Positions 3,289 to 58,976 of a stretch of 64,000 bases of DNA are shown in pieces. The notes beneath the pieces were generated by a model. The model was not told the DNA's origin and did not search any database. It saw only the letters and a list, made by a program, of their open reading frames with translations. Both the position numbers and the translations under genes were made by a program. The DNA comes from Alphaproteobacteria bacterium (lineage in GTDB: Bacteria > Pseudomonadota > Alphaproteobacteria > RF32 > CAG-239). Within the stretch, counting starts at the first letter, position 1. Every line of letters starts with the position of its first letter. The stretch lies in assembly GCA_017445475.1 (NCBI GenBank), contig JAFSUB010000005.1:20124-84123 (forward strand), read 5' to 3'.

Positions 3289-3759
3289 TTAAATTTTTGG
3301 AAAAAGCCCCGTTTGCCGTAGGGCTTCACCCACAACCATAACCGCCGAAACCGCAACATTGATTGAGCGTGCTTTTTTTGTCATAGGAATTAAAAGGCGT
3401 GCATCGGCTGTTTGATGGACAATTTCAGGCACGCCGGCACTTTCTCTGCCCATTAAAATGATGTCGTTTTTTTCAAACTTAAAATCGGTATACGGCATTA
3501 AAGCGTGAGTCGTCAGCAAAACGATTCTGCCGTATTCTTCTTTGTTTTCCGCGCGGTATGCCAAAAAATCGTTCCACGAAGCGTGTCTTTTGTATGTTGC
3601 CATATCAAGATAGTCCATCCCCGCACGGCGCACCGATTTGTCAGCAAAGTTGAAACCGCAAGGTTCAATAATGTCAACAGGCAAATCAAGGCACGCCCCC
3701 AAACGAAGAAGCGTGCCTGTATTTTGTGCAATATCCGGCTGAAAAAGCGCCAATCGCAT
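3289..3759 (-). CDS. trmL: tRNA (cytidine/uridine-2'-O)-methyltransferase, SpoU/TrmL family
   Basis: 156 aa. SPOUT signature: LLTTHALMPYTDF, IILMGRESAGVP, LLIPM. Confidence 0.75.
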   Translation of the reverse strand: MRLALFQPDIAQNTGTLLRLGACLDLPVDIIEPCGFNFADKSVRRAGMDYLDMATYKRHASWNDFLAYRAENKEEYGRIVLLTTHALMPYTDFKFEKNDIILMGRESAGVPEIVHQTADARLLIPMTKKARSINVAVSAVMVVGEALRQTGLFPKI

Positions 3760-3761
3760 TG

Positions 3762-4262
3762 TCAGTTTTTGCCCTTTGCGGCAAGGCGCGCCGCATAAAC
3801 AGCCGAAAAATCAATCGGGTTTAGCATCACGGGCGGCAGACCGCCTTCCATTAAGCACTGTGCAATGATGTTTCTGGCAAACGGAAACAAAAGTGTCGGA
3901 ATATCAATGTTTAATATTGAATCAACGTGTTCCTCAGGTGCCTCCAAATCAAGAATTGCGGCATACGTCAGCTCTAAAATAAAAAGTTTTTGACCGTCAA
4001 CATCGCTGTTTAAGGCAAGCGTTAAGGCAACATCGTGCGTTAAATCGCCCAATTTTTCAGCCACAACATTTACATCAACCGTTAAGTGCGGTTGCGATGA
4101 AATGTTTTGAAAAAGTGTCGGCGCCGTCGGAATTTCAAATGATAAATCCTTAATATATTGGCTGCGAATCGCAAGCGACGGACTCTTGCTTTCTGTTGCG
4201 GCGGCTTGTTTTTGTGCTTTTTTTTGCTCTTGTTTCATTTTTGTTTCCCCTGTTGTAATCAT
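3762..4262 (-). CDS. secB: protein-export chaperone SecB
   Basis: SLAIRSQYIKDLSFEIPTAP and later tetramer-interface region are typical SecB. Conserved neighbourhood with tim44-like and mltA. Confidence 0.85.
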   Translation of the reverse strand: MITTGETKMKQEQKKAQKQAAATESKSPSLAIRSQYIKDLSFEIPTAPTLFQNISSQPHLTVDVNVVAEKLGDLTHDVALTLALNSDVDGQKLFILELTYAAILDLEAPEEHVDSILNIDIPTLLFPFARNIIAQCLMEGGLPPVMLNPIDFSAVYAARLAAKGKN

Positions 4263-4382
4263 ATAAACGATGACATCTATTTAGCGCAAATATTTTTCCG
4301 CGTCAAACAAAATATAACTGTTGATAAAATCAACAAAATACGTTATATATGTTTTAAGGTAAAAAAACTTGTAGGGAAAAGA

Positions 4383-5024
4383 ATGTCTGCGTATCTTGAT
4401 TTGATTTTTTTGGCACTGCTCGTGGTGATTGTTTTGCTTCGCTTAAACGGTGTGTTGGGCACAAGGCCCGAAAAAACACAGATTAAAATTGTGAGCAAAA
4501 AAGAATTTGAAAAAATTTATAATATGATTCAAAACGGCTTGGAAGAGGCTCAAACACGTGAAAAAGCGCATGTTCTCACGTCGCCTGTCGATCATATTTT
4601 GATTCAAATTCCGAATTTTAACAAAGCCTCGTTTATTAGGCGCGCCGCTCAAGTTTTTGAAATGCTGCTCACCGCATTTGCCAATCGCGACAAAGAAACG
4701 CTTAAAATGCTGACAGCCCCAAAGCTTTATGAAAAATTTGCGCAAATTATTGATGAACGCGAACAATTGAATATCACGGCCGAAACGGATTTGATTAAAA
4801 TTGAAGAGGCAACAATTGAAGACGCAAAAATCACCGGAAAGGGGCTTGCAAAAATTTGCGTTAAGTTTATCTCCGATCAAATCAATTTGCTTAAAAACGA
4901 CAAAGGCGAAGTGATTGAGGGCGACGAAAACTTTGTGCAGAAAATTACCGATGTGTGGACTTTTGAAAAACAACTTGGCAACCCCTCGCCCGTTTGGCTT
5001 TTAACATCGACAAAGAAAAAATAA
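4383..5024 (+). CDS. Tim44-like domain protein (N-terminal TM anchor)
   Basis: The ORF track start at 4158 overlaps secB and is low-complexity. ATG 4383 gives MSAYLDLIFLALLVVIVLL TM helix plus a Tim44-like C-domain. This gene is adjacent to secB in alphaproteobacteria. Confidence 0.7.
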   Translation: MSAYLDLIFLALLVVIVLLRLNGVLGTRPEKTQIKIVSKKEFEKIYNMIQNGLEEAQTREKAHVLTSPVDHILIQIPNFNKASFIRRAAQVFEMLLTAFANRDKETLKMLTAPKLYEKFAQIIDEREQLNITAETDLIKIEEATIEDAKITGKGLAKICVKFISDQINLLKNDKGEVIEGDENFVQKITDVWTFEKQLGNPSPVWLLTSTKKK

Positions 5025-43237: not shown

Positions 43238-43252
43238 AAATTGAGGGGGGAG

Positions 43253-43660
43253 TCAAGAATGAATCTCAACCCATCTTTGCAGCAGCGCTGCAGTTAGCTT
43301 GCAGATAATAATCTCATCATATTTTGATGCATACATCTGCTTTTCGCTGCTCAACGGAACGCGCAAATTTTCAGCGCGAACCGTTCTTGTCATGGCCTCA
43401 TACTCCAGAGGCGCTGTCGTGAGGTTCCAATTTTCGGCAACCTTAACGACTGCGTGGTAGGCAACACTGTAGGCATGAGCCTCAATGTATGCCTCCTCTT
43501 CGGCAGTGAGGTCAACGGCCAGGGCATTGAGCTCTTCGTTTGCCTGTTCAGCCTTTTGGCTGTATTCGGCAATCAGCTCTTGAGCACGCTGCATGTTTGA
43601 CGTGCAAGAAACGCACATCACGCCCGCCATAACAGCGAGCAAAAGAATAATCTTTTTCAT
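43253..43660 (-). CDS. hypothetical exported protein/lipoprotein (135 aa)
   Basis: Signal peptide MKKIILLLAVMAGVMCVSC, then a helical domain. Confidence 0.5.
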   Translation of the reverse strand: MKKIILLLAVMAGVMCVSCTSNMQRAQELIAEYSQKAEQANEELNALAVDLTAEEEAYIEAHAYSVAYHAVVKVAENWNLTTAPLEYEAMTRTVRAENLRVPLSSEKQMYASKYDEIIICKLTAALLQRWVEIHS

Positions 43661-43694
43661 ATTTTTTTAATTTTAAATTTTAATTGTTAAACAT

Positions 43695-43842
43695 TCTAGG
43701 ACTCCCACCAAGGAAATTCACTCCTGGTGCGCCTGTGATAATAGCGCCAAGCGGCGATGGAATTGACGACATATCCAACCACCATCACAACAGCGGCGAT
43801 GGCGCAAATGCCCAACAGGGCAAGGAACATGAATGCGACCAT
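43695..43842 (-). CDS. putative small hydrophobic membrane peptide (49 aa, below the ORF-track size cutoff)
   Basis: Translation MVAFMFLALLGICAIAAVVMVVGYVVNSIAAWRYYHRRTRSEFPWWES: one TM helix plus a basic/aromatic tail. Weak RBS. Flanked by 12-nt direct repeats TTAAACATTCTA. Confidence 0.3.
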
Positions 43843-43939
43843 AACAAAATATTTTTTTTAAATTAAACATTCTATGATAAGATTCCCCTCGGGGGAATAA
43901 TATACATATTTATAAACATAAATAATTTTTTAAACTTTT

Positions 43940-45241
43940 CTATCTCGTGGCGGTGTTTGCGTTTTGGCGCTCACAGCTCAAAGATTTTGCCATCGCTTTG
44001 ACAAGCTGAAATGAAACACCGTCCATTTTTTGTGTTTTCGGCTCCATGCCACGTTCAATTTGAGCTATCGCTTCATCAAGCGAAATTGCATATCCTTTTT
44101 CATGGCACAAATCAAAAAGCTTATAGCAATCGGGGCGTCTTTCTTTATCAATATAATTGCCCGTATAAACAACGCTTGGGATTCCCAAGGCCGCCGCATC
44201 CGACGTATATGAAAAACTGTCGTGCGTGTTCACCACAAATTCACACACATCTAAAACGGCCGGATATATGTTGCCGATGCTTTTCGCCTGCTCTTCAAAC
44301 TCGGCCTTATATTTACCGCTGTAATTTCTAAAATCTTGCGCTTCTTCATCATTTTGCGCGATTTTTTTGGAATTAAAAAATTCCATATGGTAAAGCTTGC
44401 ATCTTTCAAACAAATAGTCCGTCACATCGGATGGCGTGCGTGGCGAGTTTGTGAAAATCACATTATAATCTTTGGACCTGAGCTTAATTGCCGCTTTCAT
44501 CAAATTCTCGGCATCTTTTAAGTCAAAACCGATGGCGCCGTTGTCCGTTATGCCGCCAAGCGAGAACAAAACATTTTTCTTATCGCGGCTGTGGTCTATG
44601 ATGGCACCTTTGGCATAAAGCAAATTGCCGCTTAAAACACGTTTGATTTTGCCATATTTTTCTTTTAAGTGGTTTTCAAAGGTTTCATATTTGCTTTGCA
44701 GTTGATAAACATGGTTTCTAATTGTCGCCAAATTGTTGTTGCCGGCGGCGCCGAGTGTTTCCACAACTTTAGATTTAAGCTTTGGGTTTGATTTTAAGAC
44801 AGCTTCATCTAAATCAGAAAGTTGATGCTTTCCAACGTTAATGAGGTCAACATTTTGATAATCATAAAGGTTGCTTAACAAAACCATTGTCTTAACCTGA
44901 TGACCGCGCGCTTTGAAAGCCTTTTTAACAGCCAAAGAGAGCAAGTCAACATCTTTGTTTTCTTCTTTCTTTTTAGCTTGATCAAAGGGCAAAACAACAA
45001 ACTCCGGTGCTTTGTTTTCCTTTAAGTATGCATCAACACTTGCCTGAACGGCTGTTGCAAAATCGGTTAAAGAAGCAAAATTTTTGGGGTGCAAAAGCGT
45101 GCCGTCAGGCGCTTTTAATAAAGCCTCACGAGACACAGGCACTTTTTCGCCCCTTTTGCGCAATTTGGCACCGGCAACAATCACACCACGCATCTGGTTG
45201 TTTGTGCCTGTCATTTTGCTTTCAATCCCGATAACACGCAT
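43940..45241 (-). CDS. hypothetical protein (433 aa), possible GT-B-fold/ELM1-like
   Basis: C-terminal region LGIPSVVYTGNYIDKERRP resembles GT-B glycosyltransferase C-domains. The assignment is tentative. Confidence 0.35.
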   Translation of the reverse strand: MRVIGIESKMTGTNNQMRGVIVAGAKLRKRGEKVPVSREALLKAPDGTLLHPKNFASLTDFATAVQASVDAYLKENKAPEFVVLPFDQAKKKEENKDVDLLSLAVKKAFKARGHQVKTMVLLSNLYDYQNVDLINVGKHQLSDLDEAVLKSNPKLKSKVVETLGAAGNNNLATIRNHVYQLQSKYETFENHLKEKYGKIKRVLSGNLLYAKGAIIDHSRDKKNVLFSLGGITDNGAIGFDLKDAENLMKAAIKLRSKDYNVIFTNSPRTPSDVTDYLFERCKLYHMEFFNSKKIAQNDEEAQDFRNYSGKYKAEFEEQAKSIGNIYPAVLDVCEFVVNTHDSFSYTSDAAALGIPSVVYTGNYIDKERRPDCYKLFDLCHEKGYAISLDEAIAQIERGMEPKTQKMDGVSFQLVKAMAKSLSCERQNANTATR

Positions 45242-45389
45242 GGCATAAGTCCCTTTTACAAGCTATTTTCCGTAAAAATTATTATTTTCTGTCTAAAAGT
45301 GTAACAAAACCAACGTTTTATGTCAACCTTTTTTTTGCATTTTTTTAAAATTTTTTTTATCACAGAATCAATGGCTTAAAGTTTTTTCA

Positions 45390-45427
45390 ATTTTTTAAAA
45401 ACTGGTCAATTTAAACGTTCTATTAAA
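45390..45427. promoter_or_regulatory. 15-bp perfect inverted repeat (candidate operator) AACTGGTCAATTTAA-8 nt-TTAAATTGACCAGTT
   Basis: Arms at 45390-45404 and 45413-45427 are exact reverse complements. Lies about 150-190 nt upstream of the minus-strand gene starting at 45241. Confidence 0.35.
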
Positions 45428-45519
45428 TTGACCAGTTGAAATGCCAAAAAAACATCGCTGTTTCAAACAATTATACCCCTCCGTTCCTCCACCTAGGGGG
45501 GAAAGTCAAAGGGTAGAAA

Positions 45520-45798
45520 AATAAACGTCATGGCTCGTTTTCTTTAAGAAAACGTCCGGCCATCTTCGTTGTGGTGCAAAGGGCGCAATTTGGATTCTCG
45601 GGACAAGCCCGAGAATGACAGAAGAAAAGAATCGGAAAGGCCCCTTGACGCATTCGCCTGCGGCTTTGCGAGGGGTGACAATCTAATTATTGTCATGGCT
45701 CCACGCGGCACGCGTGGTCAAGCCATCTTCGGATTCTTTTACACCTAACTTGAAGATGCCTTGAATTTTTTGAGCGTGCTCAAAAAATAGGCATGACG
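45520..45798 (+). repeat. about 280-bp structured MITE-like repeat, copy 1
   Basis: About 98% identical to 46495-46779 over roughly 240 bp. Termini ACGTCATG...CATGACGT form short inverted repeats. Internal perfect palindromes ATTCTCGGGACAAGCCCGAGAAT, TGACAATCTAATTATTGTCA, CACGCGGCACGCGTG. Confidence 0.8.
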
Positions 45799-45926
45799 TT
45801 GTTTGTTTTTGGATTTTAGGGGCGAGTCGAAGACGAGTGAACCTGTCGAGCTCCACCCCTGGTATAGACGGAAAAAGAAGGCTTAGGATTACAGTAAAAG
45901 ATGGGCACCCAAGAATTGTGTCAATA

Positions 45927-46385
45927 TTACTTTGATAAAAAGTCGCCCAGCATTTTATTGAAAATTGACTGGCTCAAATTGTTTTCTTTTTCCAAATCGC
46001 TTTTGTTAAGAATATAATCTTCAAAAACTTGCGCAACAGCTTTATTTTGCCTTTCGAGACATGTGCACAAACTTTTGTATTCACCATCCGGAATGCCCTT
46101 ATTTAAATCTGCTGAATATTTTTCAAAATCACGAGAGGCTATAAAGTTCGCCGAAAATAACTTATGTTCATCGCCAAGTCGAAGGTCTATATCATAGTAT
46201 GCTCTTTGATCTGTCACCTGATACTCACCATCTTCATCCTCCACAATCCTTTGTTCTGCTTCTTGTTTCCGAGTAAGTTTGAGATTAAGGGCATCATCTC
46301 CTTTACAAATTTCCGCAGTTAAAGACTGTTCATCCGTTTGCATATTGACCAACGCACCCGCTCTTCTGTAAGTGTATTTTCCCAT
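45927..46385 (-). CDS. hypothetical protein (152 aa) bracketed by the two MITE-like repeats
   Basis: Clean ORF. No recognisable motif. Confidence 0.45.
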   Translation of the reverse strand: MGKYTYRRAGALVNMQTDEQSLTAEICKGDDALNLKLTRKQEAEQRIVEDEDGEYQVTDQRAYYDIDLRLGDEHKLFSANFIASRDFEKYSADLNKGIPDGEYKSLCTCLERQNKAVAQVFEDYILNKSDLEKENNLSQSIFNKMLGDFLSK

Positions 46386-46494
46386 TGTTTTTGCCTTTCA
46401 TTTAAGCGATGATTTCTCATCTTTTTGCCTTTATGTTGTGACTTTAACAAATAAATATTGTTTTGTCAAGATGTTTTTGCATTTTTTTTAGATT

Positions 46495-46779
46495 ATAAAC
46501 GTCATGATTCGTTTGATGCTGAAAGCAGAAAACGTCTGGCCATCTTCGTTGTGGTGCAAAGGGCGCAATTTGGATTCTCGGGACAAGCCCGAGAATGACA
46601 GAAGAAAAGAACCGGAAAGGCCCCTTGACGCATTCGCCTGCGGCTCAGCGAGGGGTGACAATCTAATTATTGTCATGGCTCCACGCGGCACGCGTGGTCA
46701 AGCCATCTTCGGATTCTTTTACACCTAACTTGAAGATGCCTTGAATTTTTTGAGCGTGCTCAAAAAAATAGGCATGACG
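46495..46779 (+). repeat. about 280-bp structured MITE-like repeat, copy 2
   Basis: See copy 1. Same orientation. Differs by three substitutions in the core. The 5' 40 nt diverge. A 37-nt insertion follows CATGACG before the shared GTTGTTTTTGGATT. Confidence 0.8.
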
Positions 46780-46889
46780 GGGTAAACAGTTGCCTATCGG
46801 CAAAAAAGGGGTAGCGGTTGTTTTTGGATTCTTCACTACGTTCAGAATGACGATAAAAAAATCAGAATGACGAGAAAAAAGCGGGAGAA

Positions 46890-47090
46890 TTAATAATGCG
46901 GGGGTGGAGTTTCTTCCGATAACGGCTTAACCGTTTCGCGCTCAATCAAGTTTTTTAAAAGCGCGTTTTCTTTTTTTATGGCATCAATTTGCTTTCCCTG
47001 AAAAATAATCACCTCACTCAAATCATCAAGCATACGCTGCTGTTCTGTGATGGCAAGTTCGATGTCTGTCAGCCTTTCTTCAATGTTCAT
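46890..47090 (-). CDS. slyX: SlyX family protein
   Basis: Coiled-coil about 66 aa from MNIEERLTDIELAI, ending in the SlyX-typical ETPPPHY. Confidence 0.75.
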   Translation of the reverse strand: MNIEERLTDIELAITEQQRMLDDLSEVIIFQGKQIDAIKKENALLKNLIERETVKPLSEETPPPHY

Positions 47091-52699: not shown

Positions 52700-53260
52700 A
52701 TGACCATTTTATACATCAATGCCTGCGTGCGTGAAAATTCAAGAACCGAAATTTTGGCGCAACATCTTATCAAAAAACTTCAAAAACCCGTTCAACAAAT
52801 CAATCTGGGACAAATTGCTTTGCTGCCTTTTAATCTTGAACTTTTGCAAAAAAGGAACGCTTTAATCAAAGCGGGCGCGCTTGATGATCCGATGTTTTCT
52901 TATGCGCATCAATTTGCCAACGCCTCTGAAATTGTTATTGCCGCGCCGATGTGGGATTTGTCTTTTCCCGCGCTCTTAAAAACATTTATTGAGCACATCA
53001 ATGTCGGCGGCATCGTGTTCAAATATTCAGGTGAAGGAAAAATTGTGCCGCTTTGCAAGGCCAAAACGCTTTATTACGTTACGACGATGGGCGGACATCA
53101 TCAAACCGATTTCGGATTCGGCTACATCAAAGCTTTGTGCCACACACTTTACGGCATCAAAGATGTTCGGCTCATCAAAGCGGAAGGCCTCAACATTATC
53201 GGCAACGATGTTCCGGCCATCTTAGAAGAAGCCAAAGCACAAATTAACACCATGTTTTAA
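52700..53260 (+). CDS. flavodoxin-like fold NAD(P)H-dependent oxidoreductase
   Basis: MTILYINACVRENSRTEIL N-terminus is typical of FMN-dependent NAD(P)H reductases (Flavodoxin_2 family). Confidence 0.6.
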   Translation: MTILYINACVRENSRTEILAQHLIKKLQKPVQQINLGQIALLPFNLELLQKRNALIKAGALDDPMFSYAHQFANASEIVIAAPMWDLSFPALLKTFIEHINVGGIVFKYSGEGKIVPLCKAKTLYYVTTMGGHHQTDFGFGYIKALCHTLYGIKDVRLIKAEGLNIIGNDVPAILEEAKAQINTMF

Positions 53261-54789
53261 CGCCCAATATCTTTGTGCTTGCCGCTTATGCAGTTTTGCC
53301 TTTTGATTTGCTCCCTGTCAACATAAATCACTTTGCCGCAACATGGGTTAAAATCGTCATTATCGTAAATCAGCCAGATGACATTGAGATTTTTCAAATC
53401 TTGACGCGGCATATCACCATATCCGTCCGTCAAAACAATTTTGTTAACTTTTTTATCTTTTGAAAACGCGCGCACAGCCTTGTCAATATCCGTTCCACCG
53501 CCACCTCGAATACGAAATTCATCAATATCTTTATTGGTCTTAATCTCAACAAAATCAAACACGCGGTGGTCAAACATACCGACTTTGAGCTCTGTTTCTT
53601 TTAATAAGGGTTTTAATTGGCGCAAAAAGTCCTTAAGCATATTGTTATCAACCGAACCGGAAACATCAAGCATCACCTCGGTTGTCGATTTATCCTCTGT
53701 TTCAACATCTTCAATGCGCGCACTGTAATCATTTGCACGCGATGCCCTGCGGTATGACCAGCGCTCTTCCTCTTCTTCAACCGATTTTTTCAAGGCTCGT
53801 TTCCAGTTGACAACTGCCTTAGCCTCGCCGACATCGCCAAACGAATCTCCTTCGTTATCAACCCGTTCTTTTGAAAGTTGTTCTTTGGCACGCTCCAAAG
53901 ATTCGATAATTTTTTTGGCAAGTTCTTCTTTTTCTTTTTTATTTTCTTCTAAAAAGCTCTTTTCTTCAGCATTATAATCAACATCTTCCTCTGGCGTTTC
54001 TTCCTCTTTACCATGAATGCGCCTCATAATTTTATCTAAAAGCGAAGGATTTTCACGGCGCTCTTTTTCTTTTTCAGCCTCTTCAACGGCCTCTTTCCAA
54101 ATCTCATGCGACGAATAGCCTGTTTGAGATTGTGCTCCTTGTTGTTGTCCTTCTTGGCTTTGATCTTGCTCTTGCTGCCCCTCTTGGCCGCCTTGCTGAC
54201 CGTTTTGGCCTTGCTCTTGATTCTGTTCCTGCTGCCCCTCTTGGCCACCTTGCTGACCATCCTGTTGTTGGTTTTGGCCGTCTTGGTTTTGCTGTTGTCC
54301 ATCACCTTGCTGACCGTTTTGGCCTTGCTCTTGATTCTGCTCTTGCTGCCCCTCTTGCTCTTTTTGCTTTTCCTCGCGTTCTTTTAAGAGTTTCTCATAC
54401 ATTTCTTCGGCAGATTTGCCCAAAGCTTCCGGCATATCAACACCGCCTTCAATCATCGGCAGATTTTCCGATTTCAAGATTTGATTAATCACCGAATCTG
54501 TTGCAATGTTCCAAAGCCCTGGCTCTTTATCTTTTGAGCGCATAATATGGTCAAATGCCACATGACAAATCTCGTGCGCAAATAAAAACGTCTGCCTACC
54601 GTCGTCTAAGGTGTGCAAAAATGAAGGCGAATAAATCACTTTTTTGCCGTTTGTGGCAGCCGTACCGATATTGTCATTGGCTTCAAAATCAAGACCGCGC
54701 ACAACAGAGCCCAAACGCGGAAATTTTCGCAAAACCGCATTTTTAATCTCCTGCACTTCTTTTTTTTGTTCCAATGTCAAGGCTGCCAT
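53257..54789 (-). CDS. VWA domain protein with N-terminal putative metallopeptidase (DUF2201-like) region and central Q/E/G-rich repeat
   Basis: HEICHVAFDH (HExxH). DVSGSVDNN MIDAS motif in the C-terminal VWA domain. About 100-aa QEQNQEQGQNGQQGG low-complexity tandem repeat. Confidence 0.7.
   Translation of the reverse strand: MAALTLEQKKEVQEIKNAVLRKFPRLGSVVRGLDFEANDNIGTAATNGKKVIYSPSFLHTLDDGRQTFLFAHEICHVAFDHIMRSKDKEPGLWNIATDSVINQILKSENLPMIEGGVDMPEALGKSAEEMYEKLLKEREEKQKEQEGQQEQNQEQGQNGQQGDGQQQNQDGQNQQQDGQQGGQEGQQEQNQEQGQNGQQGGQEGQQEQDQSQEGQQQGAQSQTGYSSHEIWKEAVEEAEKEKERRENPSLLDKIMRRIHGKEEETPEEDVDYNAEEKSFLEENKKEKEELAKKIIESLERAKEQLSKERVDNEGDSFGDVGEAKAVVNWKRALKKSVEEEEERWSYRRASRANDYSARIEDVETEDKSTTEVMLDVSGSVDNNMLKDFLRQLKPLLKETELKVGMFDHRVFDFVEIKTNKDIDEFRIRGGGGTDIDKAVRAFSKDKKVNKIVLTDGYGDMPRQDLKNLNVIWLIYDNDDFNPCCGKVIYVDREQIKRQNCISGKHKDIGR
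54126..54360. repeat. imperfect tandem DNA repeats encoding the Q/E/G-rich linker of the VWA protein
   Basis: Units such as CCTTGCTGACCGTTTTGGCCTTGCTCTTGATTCTG(T/C)TC(C/T)TGCTGCCCCTCTTG recur at 54196-54247 and 54312-54358, with shorter GNCCNTGCT periodicity throughout. Confidence 0.6.
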
Positions 54790-56820: not shown

Positions 56821-57096
56821 TTAAAGCAGGGCGAACCGCCGGCAGCCGGGTGCTGGGACCATGGCGTCCTTGCAGCCGTCGCAGCTAACGGTTCGAACAT
56901 CCCCGTCGCCAGACGCCGAAGCCGACCAAAGATAGCCTGCAGGCTTGCCGTCAGAGGCTTGATAATCTTGATCTTGCCAACCACCCAAAAGAACGGCTAA
57001 ATCTGAAAGCGAAGCTGCGCGCATAGCATCATCTCGCATAATCTCTAAAGCCTTACTGCCCCAAAGTTCTTCTGCTTTTAACAGTGTCATTGCCAT
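56821..57096 (-). CDS. DGR variable (target) protein as currently framed: 91 aa with the VR forming its last 36 codons. Likely the frameshifted 5' part of a larger target gene.
   Basis: GAAGGAGAC RBS 6 nt before ATG 57096. The 3' 109 nt are the VR. The stop TAA abuts the end of TR/VR homology. Confidence 0.7.
   Translation of the reverse strand: MAMTLLKAEELWGSKALEIMRDDAMRAASLSDLAVLLGGWQDQDYQASDGKPAGYLWSASASGDGDVRTVSCDGCKDAMVPAPGCRRFALL
56823..56931 (-). repeat. DGR variable repeat (VR)
   Basis: 109 nt homologous to 58401-58510. All roughly 23 substitutions occur where the TR coding strand has A. One base is missing relative to the TR, also at a TR-A position. The GC-rich 3' end GCCGGCGGTTCGCCCTG is conserved in both (IMH-like). 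Confidence 0.85.
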
Positions 57097-57168
57097 GTCA
57101 AGTCTCCTTCTTTGTTTCCTTATATCCCCAGTTTATCCGCCCTTCTCACTTTTGTCAAGAACTTTTTT

Positions 57169-58365
57169 TCATTTTTTTATTTTTTTCATCTTCCGAAAAG
57201 CCTTTTTCACATACCGCATTTCTTTTGTCCCTTTCAAATGCGCTTCAAAAGCATTTTGCCGAACCCGAAGATATTCATCACCGATAAAACCCTGTTTATA
57301 ATTTTTTTCAATCGCTTTAATGTAATGCCGCTCACGCCTTTTGGCCGAACCCCTGAGATTTTTGATAATTTTACCGCTTGCGCTCATTTTGTGGTTAAAA
57401 CCCAAAAAATCCAATCCGTTTTTTATTTTGCCAATCTGCGTTTTTTGGTTAAGTTCCAGCTTTAAATTTTCAGTGCAAACTTTTCTTATCATCTGAAGAC
57501 AATATTGCAAATAAGCTTTATTCTCGCCGAGCAAAATAAAGTCATCCATATAACGCACGTAATATTTCACTTTGAAACGCTCTTTAACCAACCTGTCAAT
57601 TTCATCTAAATATAAAAGCGCAAACCATTGGCTCGTCTGGTTTCCGAGCGGCAAACCGATATTGCCGTGCGATTTAATCAGCATTTTCATAAAAAGCATA
57701 TCATCTTCATCAAAGCCGCATTTTTTGAGTTTTTGAAGCAATATATCGTGATTGATGTTTTGAAAATATTTTTTGATGTCGCACTTTAAAAAATAAAATT
57801 CATTGCTCCCTATCTTGATGAAAAGCCGCCGCATAAATGTATGCAGCCTTTTTATGGCAAAATCTGTTCCCTTGCCTTTTCTGGAAGCCGCATTGTCATA
57901 AATTAAACGATTCTCTAACTTTGGTTCCAAAACATTTTTGCAAAAACTCATCAACACGACTCGGTCTTTATAAGGCAATGCTTCAATCAGGCGAACTTTA
58001 GGGTCATGAATGTAAAACGAGCGGTATTTGCTCACGCAATATTTGGCAGATTCTAAGGATTGATTGAGTTTAACCAAATTTTGCCCAAGCTCAATTTCAA
58101 ACGAAATTGTTGCGCGTTTATGCTGTTTGCTTTTTCGGCAAAGTTTGTGCGCCTTGTGCAGGCTTTGAAATGTCAAAAAGTCCTCTGTCATCGAAAATAA
58201 AAAAAGAAACATCCGATAATACATCAAAACAAAAGCTTGTGTCAATGTATGTGATGTTTCAAAAACACCGAAGCATTTTTTGTTCTTCCTCGCCTTAAAA
58301 AAAACGAGGAAAAGAAAAAGTTTCCTTTGCTTTCGGCTCGGGCGAATTTTACTTAAAACCCGCAA
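57169..58365 (-). CDS. DGR reverse transcriptase (probable true start near MTEDFL, about 58191)
   Basis: RT motifs including LGNQTSQ (the DGR-specific I/LGxxxSQ) and YMDD. N-terminal alignment to Bordetella phage Brt begins at MTEDFLTFQSLHKAHK. The upstream 58 codons are low-complexity. Confidence 0.9.
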   Translation of the reverse strand: MRVLSKIRPSRKQRKLFLFLVFFKARKNKKCFGVFETSHTLTQAFVLMYYRMFLFLFSMTEDFLTFQSLHKAHKLCRKSKQHKRATISFEIELGQNLVKLNQSLESAKYCVSKYRSFYIHDPKVRLIEALPYKDRVVLMSFCKNVLEPKLENRLIYDNAASRKGKGTDFAIKRLHTFMRRLFIKIGSNEFYFLKCDIKKYFQNINHDILLQKLKKCGFDEDDMLFMKMLIKSHGNIGLPLGNQTSQWFALLYLDEIDRLVKERFKVKYYVRYMDDFILLGENKAYLQYCLQMIRKVCTENLKLELNQKTQIGKIKNGLDFLGFNHKMSASGKIIKNLRGSAKRRERHYIKAIEKNYKQGFIGDEYLRVRQNAFEAHLKGTKEMRYVKKAFRKMKKIKK

Positions 58366-58400
58366 TATCTGGCCTTTGACGCATGGTTGCGCTTAAAAGC

Positions 58401-58510
58401 AAATCAGGGCGAACCGCCGGCTTTCGGTTGTTGGGATTATTGTCGTTCTTGTTGCCGTTTTAGTTAACGGTTTGAACATTTCCGTTGTCATTCGCCGAAG
58501 CCGACCAAAG
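58401..58510 (-). repeat. DGR template repeat (TR)
   Basis: 110 nt. On the minus strand it reads in one frame with 11 AAY codons (AAT/AAC) and is adenine-rich at every position where the VR differs. Located between avd and the RT. Confidence 0.85.
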
Positions 58511-58532
58511 TTCTCTCTTATCAAACTTTTTC

Positions 58533-58976
58533 TCAAACCCGTTGTTTGTTTTCTTTTTGAGCCCACCTTTCATCATCGCTTTTTTTCCACGCCGCAGTCA
58601 GGCCGATGACCTCTGAAACCTGAAGCGCAATTTGTTTATATTGCCTTTCCGTAATACATCCGGCGCCCTGCGCCGTCATTGAAACATAAGAAAGCAACTT
58701 TAACTTAATGAGGGCATTGTGTTGATGATTTTCACGCAAAACTTTATTTTCCGGTGTATCCAGTTTGATAAAATTTGCCCTAAGCAAACTTTCAACCACA
58801 TCCAAACAAAAATTTTGCATGCGATTAACAAAGACACCCCTGAATTTTGCCGGCGATTTCAAAGTTATTGTCATCACGTATTCGCCAAGTTTTTTAGCCT
58901 GCGTGATAACAAACAAATCACTGCCGCCGGCGAAAGATTGCATCTCAAAAACACCGGACTTTTCTGACATACTCAT
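58533..58976 (-). CDS. avd: DGR accessory variability determinant (Avd), four-helix-bundle protein
   Basis: 147 aa. C-terminal ITERQYKQIALQVSEVIGLTAAWKK aligns with the bAvd/TIGR02436 family. Positioned immediately 5' of the TR. Confidence 0.7.
   Translation of the reverse strand: MSMSEKSGVFEMQSFAGGSDLFVITQAKKLGEYVMTITLKSPAKFRGVFVNRMQNFCLDVVESLLRANFIKLDTPENKVLRENHQHNALIKLKLLSYVSMTAQGAGCITERQYKQIALQVSEVIGLTAAWKKSDDERWAQKENKQRV

Follow-up and report, generated by a model that had tools for sequence, protein, structure and literature searches.

The 64-kb window analysed here, by which we mean the whole stretch of DNA under study, has a G+C content of 42.6% and carries genes for a ChpT-like phosphotransferase, SlyX and TrmFO. 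Metagenome assemblies with the labels XIEF21 and TONG22 contain the same or a closely similar sequence, as does an NCBI metagenome-assembled genome (MAG) named 'Alphaproteobacteria bacterium'; the assembly labels point to a ruminant-gut origin. On the 3' side of slyX lies an element of about 280 nt, here called E, which is present in two direct copies, E1 and E2, enclosing one small open reading frame (ORF), referred to as the orphan gene:

45520-45798, no strand: E1, a mosaic of five tagged palindromic modules
46495-46779, no strand: E2, the same five modules, at the orthologous site 3' of slyX in all related strains examined
45927-46385, minus strand: orphan ORF of 152 aa, the sole ORF of that size between the E copies
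46890-47090, minus strand: slyX, a core gene whose 3' side carries E2

The original prediction, made from the sequence of the window, had described two direct repeats of about 280 bp, about 98% identical over roughly 240 bp, which bracket a single hypothetical gene of 152 aa on the opposite strand. This description is correct. The gapless core (45547-45787 versus 46527-46767) comprises 241 nt with 3 mismatches (98% identity), and a gapped alignment of E1 and E2 gives 94.4% identity across 285 nt. The direct repeat is far beyond chance expectation. Folding of E yielded -116 kcal/mol for the plus strand (z = -6.4) and -108 kcal/mol for the minus strand (z = -6.9), and on neither strand was any of 200 shuffled sequences equally stable. 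The three palindromes reported for each copy are present, as are the internal direct repeat GCCATCTTCG (at 45560 and 45723 in E1, with equivalents in E2) and the mini-repeat TCAGAATGACGA, which occurs twice downstream of E2 at 46842-46880. Short terminal inverted repeats (TIRs) had been described, too. These exist with 9 bp in E1 (AACGTCATG/CATGACGTT), but comprise just 7 bp in E2 (CGTCATG/CATGACG), and the homology continues outside of them: beyond the right end GTTGTTTTTGGATT is found at 45803-45816 and at 46818-46831, in the latter case separated from E2 by an indel of about 35 nt.

Each copy consists of five palindromic modules tagged with CGTC or TGTC, in the order M1(+), M2(-), M5(-), M3(+), M4(-). 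E is a mosaic of repetitive extragenic palindromic (REP) sequences, similar to a bacterial interspersed mosaic element (BIME) and mostly of an elaborated, nested form, and no unitary transposon. The modules and the related features downstream of E2 are as follows:

45526-45566, plus strand: M1 of E1, CGTC-ATGGC..[CGTTTTC-TTTAA-GAAAACG]..GCCAT-CTT, with its tag at the outer left end
46500-46546: M1 of E2, with a degenerate outer stem and an extra small hairpin, TGCTGAAAGCA, nested in the loop
45591-45620, minus strand: M2 of E1 (46571-46600 in E2), a canonical CGTC-type REP, TGTC-ATTCTCGGG-CTTGT-CCCGAGAAT-CCA
45637-45680, minus strand: M5 of E1 (46617-46660 in E2), TGTC-ACCCCT-[CGCAAAGCCGCAGGCGAATGCG]-TCA-AGGGG-CCTT
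45638/45639 (46618/46619 in E2): 3' border of M5, a recurrent recombination breakpoint
45691-45729, plus strand: M3 of E1 (46671-46709 in E2), TGTC-ATGGCT-[CCACGCG-GCA-CGCGTGG]-TCA-AGCCAT-CTT, with the inner hairpin CCACGCGGCACGCGTGG
45753-45798, minus strand: M4 of E1 (46733-46779 in E2), CGTC-ATGCCT-[A-TTTTTTGAGC-ACGC-GCTCAAAAAA-T]-TCA-AGGCAT-CTT, with its tag at the outer right end; the inner part can also be written as A-TTTTTTGAGCACGCTCAAAAAA-T
46842-46880, minus strand: two 20-nt tandem half-units (TCGTCATTCTGA plus an A/T run), consisting of tag and 5' REP arm

M1, M3, M4 and M5 share the frame C/TGTC-AYNNCT-[variable inner hairpin]-TCA-AGNNRT-CTT, with an outer stem of 5-6 bp, a structured loop of 17-28 nt, a constant TCA bulge and a CTT tail. 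The tag is TGTC in M2, M3 and M5 and CGTC in M1 and M4; the tail is CCA in M2, CTT in M1, M3 and M4 and CCTT in M5. The outer stems vary between the module types yet stay complementary (ATGGCT/AGCCAT, ATGCCT/AGGCAT, ACCCCT/AGGGG), and this applies likewise to those of sister strains (ATTCCT/AGGAAT, ATCACT/AGTGAT).

With this parse, all features that had drawn attention to the locus are explained, from the TIRs and the three palindromes to the GCCATCTTCG repeat and the GAATGAC mini-repeats. M1 and M4 form the TIRs with their tags and outer stems. One of the palindromes, TGACAATCTAATTATTGTCA, is the head-to-head junction of the M5 and M3 tags, and another one, CACGCGGCACGCGTG, is the inner hairpin of M3. 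M1 and M3, which have the same orientation, each contribute one copy of the GCCATCTTCG repeat with their 3' arm and tail. As in a BIME-like cluster, the units alternate in orientation (+ - - + -) and the composition differs between copies, as seen in the hybrid E1 of sister strains described below. Tagged hairpins with a perfect stem occur 8 times in the window, compared to 1.6 in shuffled sequences, and 6 of the 8 are located inside E1 and E2. Only two canonical CGTC units (at most one mismatch) are present in the window, both of them being M2.

An exact scan of one genome per species with the 20-mer TCTCGGGACAAGCCCGAGAA of M2, the core of the first palindrome, for which about one chance match is expected, gave matches at more than 120 loci, nearly all of them in Alphaproteobacteria of several orders. 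Hosts among the matches listed are Bosea, Brucella, Mesorhizobium, Phyllobacterium, Agrobacterium, Brevundimonas, Hyphomonadaceae, Caedibacter and uncultured gut lineages. All 148 occurrences listed have the same short context around the hairpin, which reads C/TGTC-ATTCTCGGG-CTTGT-CCCGAGAAT-Cnn on the other strand. Among these copies the tag is CGTC in 95 and TGTC in 21 cases, 138 of the 148 have an AT-first 9-bp stem, and the tails are CTA, CTC, CTG or CCA.

CGTC REPs have been defined by a CGTC tag (with TGTC or CCTC as variants, often TGTC), a stem of 8-9 bp whose first and second positions are occupied by A-T, a loop of 4-5 nt and an unpaired 3-nt tail with the consensus CCA (Di Nocera, De Gregorio and Rocco 2013, PMC3733652). 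They occur mostly in Alphaproteobacteria, there in all orders, mainly as head-to-head dimers and rarely in clusters; they have no associated transposase, and the Rickettsia elements RPE-4 and RPE-6 belong to this class (PMC3733652). M2 corresponds to the published definition with its TGTC tag, AT-first 9-bp stem, 5-nt loop and CCA tail. M2 translates as LDSRDKPEND, a peptide similar in kind to those of published intragenic CGTC units, which include DARVKPAHD and LDSRFRGND (PMC3733652). To judge from its sequence, M2 is a member of the CGTC REP class. No literal match to the hairpin sequence was found in the literature searched. The spacers holding an M2-type REP among the listed loci are convergent in 32, tandem in 56 and divergent in 10 cases, and the orientation of the REP shows no bias (29:27), both by crude ORF calls; this spacer distribution is that expected of REPs at 3' ends.

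Several further observations were made on the listed loci. In Caedibacter sp. 38-128 (L060 5850-5892) and Candidatus Caedibacter acanthamoebae (L078 3593-3635) a CGTC REP occupies an orthologous intergenic site; the flanking genes are 81-85% identical and the 43 nt around the hairpin 91%. In Rhizobiales loci (e.g. L006, L023, L046, L053, L057, L084, L095, L115, L116) the REP is frequently found in inverted pairs with a distance of 77-81 nt and an overall length of about 105 bp, each unit being preceded by GTAGAT or GCAGAT. These pairs presumably resemble the 103-105-bp Bru-RS palindromic repeats of Brucella. Half-unit arrays (...CCCGAGAATGAC...) follow full REPs in other gut alphaproteobacterial MAGs, too (e.g. 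L019, L038, L044). Three contigs of a Hadza gut MAG (L012 4475-5137, L020 4153-4808, L097 ~3920-4932) share a REP-containing repeat of 420-660 nt with 86-92% identity, which is also found in another species (L103). This repeat was considered as an analogue of a miniature inverted-repeat transposable element (MITE) and rejected, as it consists of the sequence upstream of paralogous prepilin-like genes together with their N-terminus (MIEMLGVLAIIAVL...). Because the repeat is the 5' region of these genes, the REP lies in a 5' leader in the Hadza MAG.

The locus was found in three states among the related strains. In state A, represented by L131 (core genes 88-91% identical to the window), slyX is followed by one E, by the promoter that faces the orphan gene in the window together with part of the leader, and then by the terminators of a convergent 166-aa gene; the orphan gene is absent. 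In state B (L122, L123, L125, L126 and L129) slyX is followed by E2, the promoter, the orphan gene and a hybrid E1, and the 433-aa and 135-aa genes found beside E1 in the window are missing. The M4-M3-M5 part of the hybrid E1 (160 nt) is E-like, and M2 and M1 are replaced by two different modules with the same frame. State C, found in the window and in L001, has the full E1 and, next to it, a 2.2-kb insert that carries a similar promoter of its own. In more distant relatives (ChpT with at most 61% identity) chpT is followed by the ATP synthase operon, and both slyX and E are absent.

The core genes of L122 and L123 are 89-93% identical and their E2 copies 91%, while a tract of about 1.4 kb, from the middle of E2 (M5|M2 border) to the stop codon of the 166-aa gene, shows 97-99.8% identity. 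It contains the left part of E2, the promoter, the orphan gene, the spacer, the hybrid E1 and downstream sequence. This tract has evidently been exchanged recently between diverged lineages. The breakpoint 45638/45639 (= 46618/46619) has been used twice, as the left end of the tract lies exactly where the likeness of E1 and the hybrid E1 ends, and module borders therefore behave as recombination breakpoints. A haplotype of three substitutions in M5 is present in E2 of L122 and in E1 of L123. Furthermore, E2 of L001 carries the three E1 alleles, although a collapse of the assembly is possible for L001. The pattern of shared alleles suggests that E1 and E2 are kept alike by gene conversion, and we infer that the direct-repeat layout results from homologous recombination through the shared M4-M3-M5 segment and not from transposition. 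E2 is a resident feature 3' of slyX in this species cluster, and the second copy is part of the 1.4-kb block; the layout would have arisen either by Campbell-type insertion of a block with its own E-like end or by unequal crossing-over. The number of half-unit mini-repeats among the strains is 0, 2 or 3; the array of L122 is located at 3491-3550, and L123 and L131 have none.

The surroundings of the two copies contain these further features:

46441-46469, minus strand: sigma-70-like promoter TTGACA-17-TAAAGT, TG-extended, facing the orphan ORF, 26 nt past the M1 end of E2
45298-45326, minus strand: second, similar promoter TTGACA-17-TACACT, facing the 433-aa gene and preceded, like the orphan promoter, by AAAAAAATGCAAAAA
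45400-45437, no strand: perfect 15-bp inverted repeat AACTGGTCAATTTAA N8 TTAAATTGACCAGTT, followed by TTTTT on the minus strand
43248-45408, minus strand: 2.2-kb strain-specific insert beside E1 with genes for a 433-aa ELM1/PF06258-like protein, a membrane ORF of about 48 aa and a 135-aa lipoprotein

The insert is present in the window and L001 and absent from L122, L123, L125, L126, L129 and L131. The orphan protein belongs to no family in Pfam, NCBIfam, PADLOC or PHROGs, and a comparison of the neighbouring proteins with NCBIfam, PADLOC and PHROGs gave nothing useful. The single homologue cluster of the orphan protein is the 97%-identical allele of the sister strains; the alleles differ by 5 non-synonymous and 1-2 synonymous changes. 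A structure predicted with AlphaFold2 without an alignment had a low confidence (predicted local distance difference test score, pLDDT, 57).

The minus strand is the sense strand of all genes neighbouring E. On this strand E2 begins 110 nt past the stop codon of slyX and E1 128 nt past that of the orphan gene, and E1 is followed by the hairpin at 45437-45400 with its T run and then by the second promoter. Each E copy is thus preceded by a stop codon, that of slyX for E2 and that of the orphan gene for E1, and closely followed by a sigma-70-like promoter. No canonical terminator was seen after slyX. The AT-rich hairpin at 45400-45437, which was not called by the terminator scan, could by its sequence be the terminator of the orphan gene plus E1 transcript or, alternatively, a protein-binding site; its inverted repeat is imperfect in the sister strains and rearranged in L131. 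By analogy with the REPs and BIMEs of E. coli, E would be transcribed on the minus strand as 3' untranslated region (UTR) or intercistronic part of slyX and the orphan gene. In the transcript its row of hairpins would hold up 3' exonucleases and reduce read-through into the next promoter. As DNA, E would supply portable homology, turning the intergenic region into a hotspot of gene gain and loss. In our view E probably acts in both ways, as a 3'-UTR hairpin cluster and as a recombination substrate. Among the interpretations offered by the original prediction were UTR elements of a cassette. The UTR-like positions and the exchange of the orphan block among the strains agree with it, and the 3'-UTR function is inferred.

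The closest known relatives of E are the CGTC-tagged REPs of the families CGTC-3/4 (BMC Genomics 14:522, PMC3733652), to which E is compared here without assignment of an exact family number. Common to both are all described features in the case of M2, a tag with a short tail in all five modules, the alphaproteobacterial host, the head-to-head arrangement (M5/M3) and the lack of an associated transposase. Differences are the outer stem of 5-6 bp, the 17-28-nt hairpin loop and the TCA bulge of four of the modules, the packing of five units in one cluster of 280 nt and the absence of dispersed copies in the genome sample. The nested module form is not described in the 2013 survey. With the BIMEs of E. 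coli E shares the mosaic of REPs in alternating orientation, short conserved linkers and sites in 3' UTRs or within operons. However, BIMEs consist of GTAG-type Y/Z REPs, have a REP-associated tyrosine transposase (RAYT) as partner and exist in hundreds of copies, whereas E consists of CGTC-type units with no known transposase at a single locus. In E. coli, REPs and BIMEs reportedly protect mRNA 3' ends and attenuate transcription. Rickettsia palindromic elements (RPEs; RPE-4 and RPE-6 being CGTC elements, PMC3733652) are likewise CGTC-tagged palindromic repeats of an alphaproteobacterium which are bigger than a simple REP, but they are 100-150 bp long, dispersed and often situated in frame within genes, whereas E is intergenic, larger and local.

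We consider it fairly probable that E as a whole is a BIME-like cluster of CGTC REPs which was duplicated and exchanged by recombination and serves as 3' UTR and as portable homology. Several observations weigh against this explanation. The sizes of stem and loop given in the CGTC definition (8-9 bp and 4-5 nt) apply to M2 alone. Because M1, M3, M4 and M5 lie outside these sizes, most of E is a variant and not a textbook member of the class, and clusters are rare for CGTC elements. REPs are by definition multi-copy, and here just ten units at one locus were seen in about 68 kb read. L131 keeps the promoter without the gene, which is explained neither by a simple insertion nor by a simple deletion between two E copies; the latter model is at odds with the promoter kept in state A. 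E2 differs from its counterparts in L123 and in L131 at about 10 of 287 positions each (3.5%), with the adjoining slyX being about 11% diverged and the promoter side in L131 about 14%. This degree of conservation suggests a more specific function, or more repeated homogenisation, than a passive REP cluster calls for. RNAalifold on nine orthologous and paralogous copies (diversity 2-9%) found no compensatory double change in any of 60 pairs, and the varying positions, 14 of 128 paired and 22 of 159 unpaired ones, show no depletion of substitutions in the stems.

It is possible, though unlikely, that clusters of the E type form an undescribed, elaborated subclass of CGTC REPs, in which hairpins were repeatedly inserted in the loop, and that blocks of E, promoter and gene stack 3' of slyX as portable recombination modules. 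If so, the locus would be an integron-like cassette array that arose without an integrase, by homologous or hairpin-directed recombination, and the strong conservation of E2 would reflect selection on its role in recombination or on a specific function as 3'-UTR RNA.

Alternatively E might have no function and have arisen as a by-product, when an intergenic stretch with degenerate REP debris was neutrally duplicated on the spot and then maintained by gene conversion alone. An orphan ORF without purifying selection, the lack of covariation and the presence of just two 98% identical copies with signs of conversion at one locus are in line with this. A decaying remnant would hardly show five well-formed tagged modules with compensated outer stems, however, and all strains have kept E2 in its place, even L131, where a single copy exists without a local conversion partner and E2 is nevertheless more conserved than both flanks. 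We regard this as an unlikely explanation.

The original prediction had also suggested a structured non-coding RNA family, to be searched for with covariance models. E would in this case be a specific structured RNA of about 280 nt, either a small RNA or a cis-regulatory part of a 3' or 5' UTR, duplicated so that each neighbouring gene has one. The stable fold (z about -6.5) would fit, as would the divergence of E2, which in two independent comparisons is roughly three times lower than that of the coding sequence beside it. Several of the substitutions in stems are transitions compatible with G-U pairing, but they are split between the strands. A search with the covariance models of Rfam 15 at the gathering threshold and at E<=10 gave no match on E, and besides the missing compensatory pairs the covariation term of RNAalifold was unfavourable (+1.86). 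The GAGC/GCTC hairpin is disrupted in most strains. The outer stems of different module types do covary, which is equally expected of DNA palindromes. A consensus scan found no plus-strand promoter upstream of E1 or E2, and homologues are confined to one species cluster. The stems are not depleted in substitutions, either. We hold a dedicated RNA of this kind to be quite unlikely.

The MITE interpretation, which had been put forward in the first place, fared worse. A genuine MITE would be a non-autonomous transposon of 280 bp with CGTCATG TIRs that moved as a unit, and two insertions would bracket the orphan gene. Short TIRs, the length of about 280 bp, the strong fold on both strands and the intergenic site speak for it, and REPs themselves are regarded as possible miniature mobile elements by Di Nocera et al. 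(PMC3733652). Classical MITEs (Correia/NEMIS, ERIC, RUP) resemble E in size range, strong fold, co-transcription with the neighbours and possible effects on mRNA stability, but they have TIRs matching an insertion sequence, target-site duplications and many dispersed copies, and none of these was found for E. Neither E1 nor E2 shows a target-site duplication, the flanks being ..GTAGAAAAAT|E1|GTTTGTTTTT and ..TTAGATTAT|E2|GGGTAAACAG. The inverted ends, 9 bp in E1 and 7 bp in E2, are the tags and stems of M1 and M4, and the similarity of the copies runs on past the right end. Variant copies differ by whole internal modules, and the breakpoints of presence and absence lie inside E or beyond it, at module borders and not at the E ends. 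The precomputed Pfam tables, which cover about 39-67 kb of the locus, contain no transposase, integrase or Y1 HUH domain, and Pfam gave nothing on ORFs inside E.

Further copies of E, for which the original prediction had proposed a search, were not found. In the source genome the search for the unit covered the 64-kb window, where blastn and nhmmer gave no third full-length copy, and about 4 kb beyond one of its ends, which contained no unit; old, diverged copies may exist elsewhere in this genome. There was no full-length copy by nhmmer in 120 listed REP-containing alphaproteobacterial loci and, by nhmmer and blastn, nothing beyond this locus in L131-L133 and L136. An E-specific 23-mer matched two contigs in JGI metagenomes, both of them this same locus. 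Two E-specific words had no match in viral contigs, blastn of E against plasmids and phages gave none either, and a 74-aa ORF running through E2, used as bait among 5.8 billion predicted proteins, yielded no candidate. The full 280-nt E was thus seen at one locus only, in one ruminant-gut alphaproteobacterial species cluster. With neither target-site duplications nor another full-length copy in the collections searched, a MITE is very unlikely.

An integron-like or integrase-driven cassette system with E1 and E2 as its attC-like or att recombination sites, as the single small gene between structured direct repeats and the different genes accumulating in different strains might suggest, is extremely improbable, as the ends ATAAACG...CGTTGTTTG do not fit R''/R' cores (RYYYAAC...GTTRRRY), E has 280 nt compared to 57-141 nt for attC sites, the Pfam tables of the neighbourhood contain no integrase, the orphan gene has its own promoter and the breakpoints vary.

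Another repeat pair of the window, at 56.8 and 58.4 kb, was considered as a further E-like copy and rejected, as it is the variable repeat and template repeat pair of a diversity-generating retroelement. This retroelement occupies 56822-58976 on the minus strand, about 11 kb from E. Its parts, and a further set of tandem repeats in the window, are:

57169-58365, minus strand: reverse transcriptase ORF, with RVT_1 in the precomputed table of L136
58401-58510: template repeat
56823-56931: variable repeat, at the 3' end of the 91-aa ORF 56822-57095
58533-58976: 147-aa ORF upstream of the template repeat, a candidate Avd-like accessory protein
54134-54383: four 57-nt tandem repeats (61-82% identical) inside the gene 53257-54789, which encodes a 510-aa DUF2201 (VWA-like) protein

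The core of template and variable repeat shows 26 mismatches, in which A in the template repeat corresponds to G, C or T in the variable repeat.

The origin, spread and function of CGTC REPs are open questions in the field, and no transposase is associated with them. The locus described here occurs in three states among closely related gut bacteria, which makes it a natural experiment on a small scale: it combines modules exchanged at their borders, hairpins within hairpins, a varying tandem number of half-units and a gene block that moves between lineages. This could help to show whether hairpin-templated events make CGTC elements grow and whether gene turnover is promoted by such elements. 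For annotation it means that MITE-like repeats of 200-300 bp in Alphaproteobacteria may be REP mosaics. Otherwise E is an ordinary member of the bacterial palindromic repeats.

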